From the NCBI RefSeq assembly GCF_003790525.1, contig NZ_CP033635.1: a stretch of 64,000 bases of DNA; one strand, 5' to 3'. The DNA comes from Escherichia coli (GTDB lineage Bacteria; Pseudomonadota; Gammaproteobacteria; Enterobacterales; Enterobacteriaceae). Within the stretch, counting starts at the first letter, position 1; each line of letters opens with the position of its first letter. Shown one piece after another: positions 40,679-41,426 of this stretch. The translations under genes and the position numbers were made by a program. The notes under the pieces are model-generated. The model had not been told where the DNA came from. It saw only the letters and a program-made list of their open reading frames with translations, and searched no databases.

Positions 40679-41426
40679 AATATTATCGGTTATACTAATT
40701 AAGTTAAAAAATAAACTATAAATACCAGAGCCTGGTATTATTGCTTGTTTTTTATAAGCAAATAATGAGCTGGGGTTTAAATTATGCCACTAAATGGATA
40801 TTCATCAATACCCCGCCAGAGAGATAGTTGCCCAGCGGGCATAGATCATTATTAGTCAACCAATGAGCATAAATAAGCACAAGGAGGTGTGTATTGCGAA
40901 TAGTAATTCAATGACATGCTGGTGGTTTTTTTGTGGTGAAAATATTTGTACCTTTTTGTTTACGGATGAAAAATAAACAGTCATATTATTTTGGTTAATT
41001 GTTGTGTTAGTTTTAACACTCGGTGATGTTTTTTGTTATAGTGCATTAATTTTTAAATAAAAAAATTCATACATTCATGGATGTAATATATACAAGATAC
41101 AATGTTAATTTTAGATAAAATATTAATTGCATTGGATACTTTTTAAATATGCCGATGTTGAGCTTAATTTTATGAGGGAATACTATTTCGGGTTGTAGGA
41201 CTTTTTTATAATCATCTTATAGGGCTCTTTATATTTACAGGAGGGTTTTGAACGATAGTTACATAACGAAGGTTGTTTATATGCGTTTACAAGCGATTAA
41301 TTAGATTAGGTGAATTTTAATAAATTAATCTATAATCATACAGCAACTATATGAATTATATTATTGACTAAATGTAATTCTTTCATCATAGTTGACATGG
41401 TTATTTTATATAAATAGAGGTGATTT

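Follow-up and report, generated by a model that had tools for sequence, protein, structure and literature searches.

The spacer between the divergent invertase genes ipuB and ipuA of Escherichia coli as a probable shared control region under H-NS and StpA

Introduction

Two genes for tyrosine DNA invertases stand back to back in the stretch of Escherichia coli DNA analysed here (64,000 nucleotides of contig NZ_CP033635.1, hereafter the window), and between them lie several hundred base pairs of very AT-rich DNA that code for nothing evident. In uropathogenic E. coli the two products, IpuA and IpuB, help to flip the switches for type 1 fimbriae and for the UpaE adhesin, so that whatever sets their expression biases colonisation phenotypes. 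The ipu locus as such has been described and characterised before (PMC6083910; 10.1101/494401), and H-NS occupancy values for it are public (PMC9765446). The published work on the locus (PMC6083910) deals with the invertible element ipuS and with the activities of the recombinases, and treats the spacer between ipuB and ipuA only as the “native ipuA promoter”.

An earlier, sequence-only reading of the window had proposed that the spacer is a control region silenced by nucleoid proteins, which may hold the recombinase promoters or a small RNA. We followed this up by comparing the spacer among E. coli genomes and with related cassettes elsewhere, by looking for promoters, RNA structures and recombination sites, and by consulting published occupancy data. 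The explanation that we favour, with a probability of about 0.75, is that the spacer is a shared divergent control region of ipuB and ipuA, with promoters that lie under a coat of H-NS and StpA.

Results

The ipu locus and its spacer

The features of the locus are as follows, in window coordinates:

40109-40678, minus strand: ipuB, tyrosine DNA invertase of 189 aa (open reading frame and RefSeq annotation of 100%-identical genomes)
40679-41426, no strand: ipuB-ipuA intergenic spacer, 748 bp, 28.2% G+C, single-copy
41427-42056, plus strand: ipuA, tyrosine DNA invertase of 209 aa, full-length form (open reading frame and RefSeq annotation)
42011-42285: ipuS invertible element, with 7-bp inverted repeats TGACCCA (42011-42017) and TGGGTCA (42279-42285), outside the spacer
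42374-42994: ipuR, LuxR-type regulator, downstream of ipuA
43019-50932: upaE, phase-variable autotransporter UpaE, after ipuR

The gene ends that bound the spacer are exact, and the divergent transcription that had been read from the sequence is borne out, with ipuB running on the minus strand from 40678 and ipuA on the plus strand from 41427. RefSeq names genes at this locus ipuB, ipuA and UpaE. Several complete genomes match positions 40000-42400 at 100% identity, and the ipuB-ipuA region is 98.8% identical over 2401 bp to that of CFT073, where gene content and gene order are also the same. The island, ordered ipuB-ipuA-ipuS-ipuR-upaE, sits between dsdC and a tRNA-Arg gene; of 5426 complete E. 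coli genomes, 236 have it, each as one chromosomal copy. The IpuB protein (WP_001224626.1) is identical across all the alleles that we looked at. Some other alleles have damaged recombinase genes: an ENA metagenome contig (L096, 2278-2799) has a 47-bp deletion in ipuB, and E. coli SCU-124 (L004) has frameshifts in both ipuA and ipuB, which may be assembly errors. In the AT-rich gap that separates dsdC from ipuB, a strong hairpin of 13 pairs with a T-run (40067-40100, minus strand) comes right after the ipuB stop codon and is probably the ipuB terminator.

That the spacer is long, AT-rich and lacks a convincing open reading frame was also correctly seen from the letters alone. Its longest frame has 42 aa, none is shared between the spacers of related cassettes (described below), and we therefore rejected a small-protein gene, as no open reading frame is common to the lineages. 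None of the 236 RefSeq genomes has an annotated feature in the spacer. There was no paralogous match to it in E. coli genomes, and a distant BLAST search against E. coli genomes, plasmids and phages returned the same locus only, which argues that the spacer is not a repeat, the remnant of an insertion sequence or a mobile element.

One database entry gives the island another identity. In GenBank MG710528.1 (Escherichia phage GER2), positions 1-13000 take in the whole ipu island, entered as phage DNA, with ipuA labelled “integrasse” and upaE “long tail fiber proximal subunit”. One of its three “attL” features (2292-2303) is a 12-base T-rich stretch of the spacer, at about 41027-41038 of the window. 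Genes of phage type (for a putative integrase, followed by those for antitermination and an antirepressor) start only at about 13.4 kb, which suggests that the GER2 prophage starts there and adjoins the ipu island.

Base composition and nucleoid proteins

The G+C content of the spacer, 28.2%, compares with 46.7% for the window, 33% for ipuB and 35% for ipuA. Low G+C is not confined to the spacer, which is the lowest point of an AT-rich island of 3.3 kb (39715-43018, 32.5% G+C), and the cassette is horizontally acquired AT-rich DNA.

Nucleoid-protein binding at the locus can be taken from published ChIP-seq in CFT073 (PMC9765446, Data set S1, sheet 1E), in which occupancy is scaled from 0 to 1, with 1 standing for the average over the top 20 genes and a cut-off of 0.07 for “bound”. 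The values, which are given per gene with the spacer itself unlisted and which measure occupancy and not silencing, are 0.91 for H-NS and 0.93 for StpA at ipuB, and 0.84 and 0.83 at ipuA. The two genes are among the 798 H-NS-bound genes of CFT073 and are occupied near-maximally (PMC9765446). On one side the per-gene values drop to 0.54 (H-NS) and 0.50 (StpA) at ipuR (c2896) and to 0.12 and 0.10 at upaE (c2895), and on the other side to 0.13 and 0.12 at dsdC (PMC9765446). High occupancy of ipuB and ipuA that falls off to both sides points to a filament centred on the recombinase genes, and so on the spacer. The idea of a control region coated by nucleoid proteins is in this respect supported by the published data (PMC9765446), as far as occupancy per gene goes.

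Related cassettes

Orthologous cassettes were sought by protein searches with IpuB and IpuA, together with look-ups of the contigs that were hit. Two types of Salmonella enterica subsp. diarizonae (L090/L091 and L098-L101) have the same cassette in other chromosomal contexts, as does a further lineage from a sequencing run (L092). Its order there is an ipuB-like gene, a spacer, an ipuA-like gene, a regulator of GerE/LuxR type and an autotransporter of about 2630 aa, and its recombinases are about 79-82% identical to IpuB and IpuA of E. coli. The spacers of the other three lineages have lengths of 743, 746 and 740 bp, compared to 748 bp in E. coli. They are 69-75% identical to one another, and the E. 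coli spacer is 49-51% identical to them, which is near the level of a random alignment of AT-rich DNA.

Further candidates were set aside. Two would-be extra lineages turned out to be E. coli alleles, one with an inversion (L093) and one with the 47-bp ipuB deletion mentioned above (L096). In three other loci, one with plasmid-like partition genes nearby (L097), one from Hafnia (L094) and one from Salmonella (L095), the recombinases are about 65-69% identical to IpuB and the genes are arranged differently. A peptide-pattern scan of genome contigs with IpuB gave only distant Xer-like integrases (27-38% identity), none of them in an orthologous cassette. When metagenomes were scanned with the two best motifs of the spacer, 16 loci came out, all of them E. 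coli alleles (97.9-99.7% identity), and no new lineage. The power of footprinting is low, owing to the fact that there are only four lineages, three of which are 69-75% identical to one another.

Conserved islands in the spacer

Within this near-random alignment, short islands of conservation stand out:

Island a, 40781-40808: AATTATGnCA ... TTCATCAA; on the minus strand, the predicted ipuB promoter motif
Island b, 40895-40912: ARG-box-like palindrome, core [C/T]GAAT-N4-ATTCA at 40897-40910
Island c, 40947-40965: TGTACYYTTTTRTTTACGG, the best conserved, with 16 of 19 columns invariant over the four lineages
Island d, about 41015: AACA, the -35-like part of the site at 41013-41042
Island e, 41070-41076: TACATTC, invariant in the four lineages
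Island f, 41111-41121, plus strand: TTAGnTAnAAT, with the -10-like hexamer TAnAAT at 41116-41121
Island g, 41306-41336, plus strand: TTAGGTGA ... AATCTATAAT, of which AATCTATAAT is invariant in the four lineages

The distances between islands are also kept. Over the four lineages, c and d are 67, 67, 66 and 68 bp apart, d and e 56, 56, 56 and 55 bp, and e and f 41, 40, 40 and 40 bp. The distance from b to c is 50 bp for E. coli and 40 bp for the other lineages, a difference of exactly 10 bp, or one helical turn. The conserved length of the spacer (740-748 bp) and the presence of such islands in sequence of near-random identity both count for a shared control region.

Two of the central islands recall binding sites of known regulators. 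The ARG-box consensus is the 18-bp WNTGAATWWWWATTCANW, to which island b has two mismatches in the window copy and between none and two in the alleles of E. coli; its core is a perfect TGAAT-AATT-ATTCA in L090, L092 and L098. In the whole window there are six matches to WNTGAATWWWWATTCANW with two mismatches or fewer, compared to 2.1 expected. No second ARG box was seen at 21 bp to either side in the alignment of the four lineages. Island c (TGTACYYTTTTRTTTACGG) may be said to resemble, loosely, a TyrR box (TGTAAA-N6-TTTACA). Compared by eye to the consensus sequences of CRP, Fur, RcsAB, NarL, SlyA, Lrp, IHF and the Pho box, the islands gave no match as good as that to the ARG box. Naming ArgR or TyrR on the strength of such likeness to consensus sequences would give a lead only.

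Variation within E. coli

For variation inside the species we compared 14 E. coli haplotypes, taken from metagenome contigs as well as RefSeq genomes. Segregating sites make up 11.4% of the spacer, compared to 1.05% of ipuB and 2.9% of ipuA. They are unevenly spread. Two 50-bp bins have none among the 14 haplotypes, namely 40779-40828, which holds the predicted ipuB promoter, and 40929-40978, which holds island c; the bin 41279-41328, just before the TATAAT that precedes ipuA, has one. A hot spot is seen at 40829-40928, with 25 segregating sites in 100 bp and two deeply diverged groups among the 14 haplotypes, and it possibly reflects relaxed constraint or imported DNA. The ARG-box-like site lies inside this hot spot and is polymorphic in E. 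coli at 40897, 40902, 40903, 40905 and 40907.

Promoter-like sites

Scans for sigma-70 promoters were made both with a promoter pattern and with position weights. In the region 39700-43100 the promoter scan gave fewer matches than it did in shuffled sequences (13 compared to 19.5). The sites of most interest are:

40808-40781, minus strand: predicted sigma-70 promoter of ipuB, TTGATG-16-TGgCATAAT, with an extended -10 (promoter scan and position-weight scan)
41013-41042, plus strand: promoter-like site, TTAACA, 18 nt, TG-TATAGT, the best match of the promoter scan (10/12)
41364-41392, plus strand: E. coli-specific promoter-like site, TTGACT-17-CATAGT, 35 bp upstream of the ipuA ATG

The ipuB motif is a good sigma-70 match and ranks first for the minus strand in the position-weight scan; E. 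coli, L090 and L092 have it in identical form, and L098 in a weaker one. Transcription from it would be expected to start near 40774 and to give a leader of about 95 nt. The picture for ipuA is less simple. The site at 41013-41042 is conserved in the other lineages only in its -35-like AACA and not in its -10. Island f has the form CTGACA-17-TATAAT in L090, where it is the best match on the plus strand, and has a weak -35 in E. coli. On sequence grounds, 41306-41336 is likely to be the core promoter region of ipuA; its TATAAT (41331-41336) lies 91 bp before the ipuA ATG and has a poor -35 and a modest position-weight score. The site at 41364-41392 is the top position-weight match on the plus strand, and is not conserved in the Salmonella-type spacers.

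A clone with the native ipuA promoter is said to have been made by Bryan et al. in 2006, and plasmid-borne ipuA under its native promoter is reportedly expressed and functional (PMC6083910). From the conserved promoter-like motifs and this plasmid expression we infer that the spacer holds the recombinase promoters, as had been proposed. The particular promoters assigned here, and the part given below to the central islands, are read from the letters and their conservation.

The ipuS switch and rearrangements of the locus

The invertible element ipuS was described as having 7-bp repeats and a length of about 260 bp and as overlapping the 3′ end of ipuA, and in its ON state it truncates IpuA by 11 aa with a change of K to F, so that the protein ends in F (PMC6083910). 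Inverting the ipuS segment of the window turns ...HFDPKCKP... into ...HFDPF-stop, which matches the truncation described (PMC6083910). The full-length IpuA of 209 aa in the window, taken with this description of the ON state, places ipuS in the OFF orientation here. Inside ipuS, at 42218-42238, there is a perfect hairpin with an 8-bp stem, ACGCAGGT-TTTTT-ACCTGCGT, with T-runs on both sides; it is likely a bidirectional terminator, which in the OFF orientation would keep transcription of ipuA from running on into ipuR. The switch of the Salmonella type may flip too, as is suggested by a 171-aa fragment of an IpuA of that type from a Logan assembly (P0213), which has a different C-terminus after ...HFDP (F, then CKPVPTS...), the very point where inversion of ipuS alters the E. 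coli protein. In E. coli TUM1586 (L007, 2821-3279), otherwise 100% identical to the window, an IS200C transposase gene lies between ipuA and ipuR (about 42057-42373 of the window), within or beside ipuS, and the insertion may lock or disable the switch.

A different kind of rearrangement is found in one E. coli assembly (L093; GCA_053222155.1, JAQQHE010000007.1, 1-1467), in which the counterpart of 40352-41774, that is the spacer with the 5′ parts of both genes, is inverted. The junction falls in a 9-bp identity, TCGAGACAA (the codons of SRQ), between the paralogous coding sequences of ipuA and ipuB. The product is a chimeric invertase that joins residues 1-116 of IpuA to the C-terminus of IpuB (P0008, 193 aa). 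The contig ends at a second homologous stretch (GLRVSEL), and one junction could be mapped. Its place in coding identity points to homologous, not site-specific, recombination between inverted paralogues, in an event seen once.

Alternative explanations

The small palindrome that had been noticed near ipuB is real, though its position is 40721-40739 and not 40723-40742, from which it is 2-3 bases off. It consists of AATACCAG-AGC-CTGGTATT and gives a stem of 8 bp with three G-C pairs and U-rich tails in E. coli, and it is the core of a larger feature:

40707-40753: imperfect palindrome with 22-nt arms and T-runs after it on both strands, in the predicted ipuB leader

This raises the idea of a small RNA, or of a leader attenuator, encoded in the spacer, with the palindrome and its U-runs ending either a short transcript or, prematurely, the leader of ipuB. 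The hairpin does lie downstream of the predicted ipuB promoter and ahead of the start codon, 40707-40753 folds better than shuffled sequences (z of -2.8 for the minus and -3.7 for the plus strand), and terminator-like matches are found on both strands at 40721-40739, as part of a total of 7 in the region compared to 1.3 in shuffles. However, when the spacer was dinucleotide-shuffled 1000 times, 217 of the shuffles (22%) had a perfect 8-bp hairpin, so the 8-bp palindrome by itself is within chance. It is also specific to E. coli: all three Salmonella-type spacers have a gap in its place, and their ipuB leaders fold no better than shuffles. Nor does the spacer otherwise behave like an RNA gene, as it has no Rfam match at E<=1 and its conserved centre has no consensus structure on either strand (-2.8 and -2.1 kcal/mol over 185 nt). 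The earlier suggestion of a small RNA is not upheld by these results, and we regard this explanation in general as improbable; a part for the palindrome as leader attenuator or bidirectional terminator is possible, but the case is weak.

Considering that invertase genes usually adjoin their switches, one could also suppose that the spacer, or some part of it, is one more element that Fim-family recombinases invert or recombine, and thus a fourth switch. The two genes do form long inverted repeats around the spacer, and the assembly described above has the spacer inverted. However, the junction in that assembly lies in coding identity and points to homologous recombination, and the 236 complete genomes all have the spacer in the same orientation and in one colinear piece, with a single exception split by IS200C within or beside ipuS. 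Sites resembling the half-sites of ipuS are no more frequent in the spacer than expected by chance, and no inverted repeat in it is conserved across the four lineages. Moreover, a genome-wide screen for inversions in CFT073, in which each of five recombinases was over-expressed, gave peaks dependent on Fim recombinases only at fimS, hyxS and ipuS (10.1101/494401). Colinear genomes, the want of half-sites and conserved repeats, and the published screen (10.1101/494401) together largely refute a fourth switch, which we hold to be extremely unlikely. There is somewhat more to be said for the spacer being, beyond two short proximal promoters, functionless AT-rich foreign DNA in decay, with its length and islands left over from shared ancestry. 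Identity of about 50% to the other lineages, polymorphism of 11.4% within E. coli, the hot spot with its 25 sites and the differences between alleles in the ARG-box-like site would all fit. Against this, the flanking proteins are about 80% identical and the spacer between them is near random, and yet it keeps a 19-bp block with 16 invariant columns, which shared ancestry alone would not leave. The islands furthermore coincide with the only bins free of polymorphism inside E. coli, and the distances between them are held within 1-2 bp through sequence that cannot be aligned. We consider decay of this kind unlikely.

Discussion

The shared control region that we favour would work as follows. Transcription of ipuB would start from TTGATG-16-TGgCATAAT (40808-40781). 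For ipuA there are two candidates, a promoter with the conserved -10 hexamer TATAAT (41331-41336) and, for E. coli alone, TTGACT-17-CATAGT (41364-41392). One promoter would lie some 90-100 bp ahead of each gene. The centre of about 230 bp (40895-41121), with its motifs at kept spacing, may serve as a platform for DNA-binding proteins, and the proteins bound there would set the output of each recombinase against the background of H-NS and StpA. The levels of the recombinases would then bias switching at ipuS, fimS and hyxS.

A more specific version can be imagined, in which the central motifs, with their fixed spacing in phase with the helix, form a dedicated nucleoprotein platform where regulators of ArgR or TyrR type, or the LuxR-type IpuR, counter H-NS and set the ratio of IpuA to IpuB. 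This we regard as a long shot. If true, however, the central platform would couple nutrient signals to three phase switches, ipuS, fimS and hyxS. Of more immediate use is a map for ipu regulation, with a probable ipuB promoter and short islands under constraint, and the ideas of a fourth switch, a small RNA and a small protein can be dropped for this spacer.

Several known systems can be set beside the spacer. The closest is the ipu locus of uropathogenic CFT073 (PMC6083910; Bryan et al. 2006, Battaglioli et al. 2018), which is the same locus. A similar picture emerges for the horizontally acquired AT-rich islands of CFT073 that are bound by H-NS and StpA (Hustmyer et al. 2022, PMC9765446), among which ipu, at 28-35% G+C in a background of 47%, has no distinguishing trait. 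All that is seen here is in keeping with the usual silenced regulatory DNA of horizontally acquired islands, and no new kind of element is called for.

For the ARG-box-like site, the comparison is with the operators of ArgR, whose 14-bp core TGAATAATTATTCA is the perfect core found in three of the lineages. These operators are usually a tandem pair about 3 bp apart, whereas the spacer has one box, which is polymorphic within E. coli. A single ARG box is known as the accessory site for Xer recombination at ColE1 cer; the site in the spacer, by comparison, is about 1.1 kb from the crossover site of ipuS.

The fim genes of K-12 offer a further parallel. Both the region upstream of fimB (nanC-fimB) and the spacer between fimB and fimE are long, AT-rich, non-coding and bound by H-NS, and distant regulator sites in them set recombinase levels and hence switching. 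The logic of the long region upstream of fimB is the same as that proposed here for the ipuB-ipuA spacer, likewise long AT-rich DNA upstream of recombinase genes of the Fim family. The two differ in sequence, as the ipu spacer has no similarity to the fimB upstream region, matches nothing else in E. coli genomes and, by eye, has no noticeable NanR- or NagC-like sites. They also differ in arrangement: fimB and fimE are co-oriented, whereas ipuB and ipuA share one divergent region.
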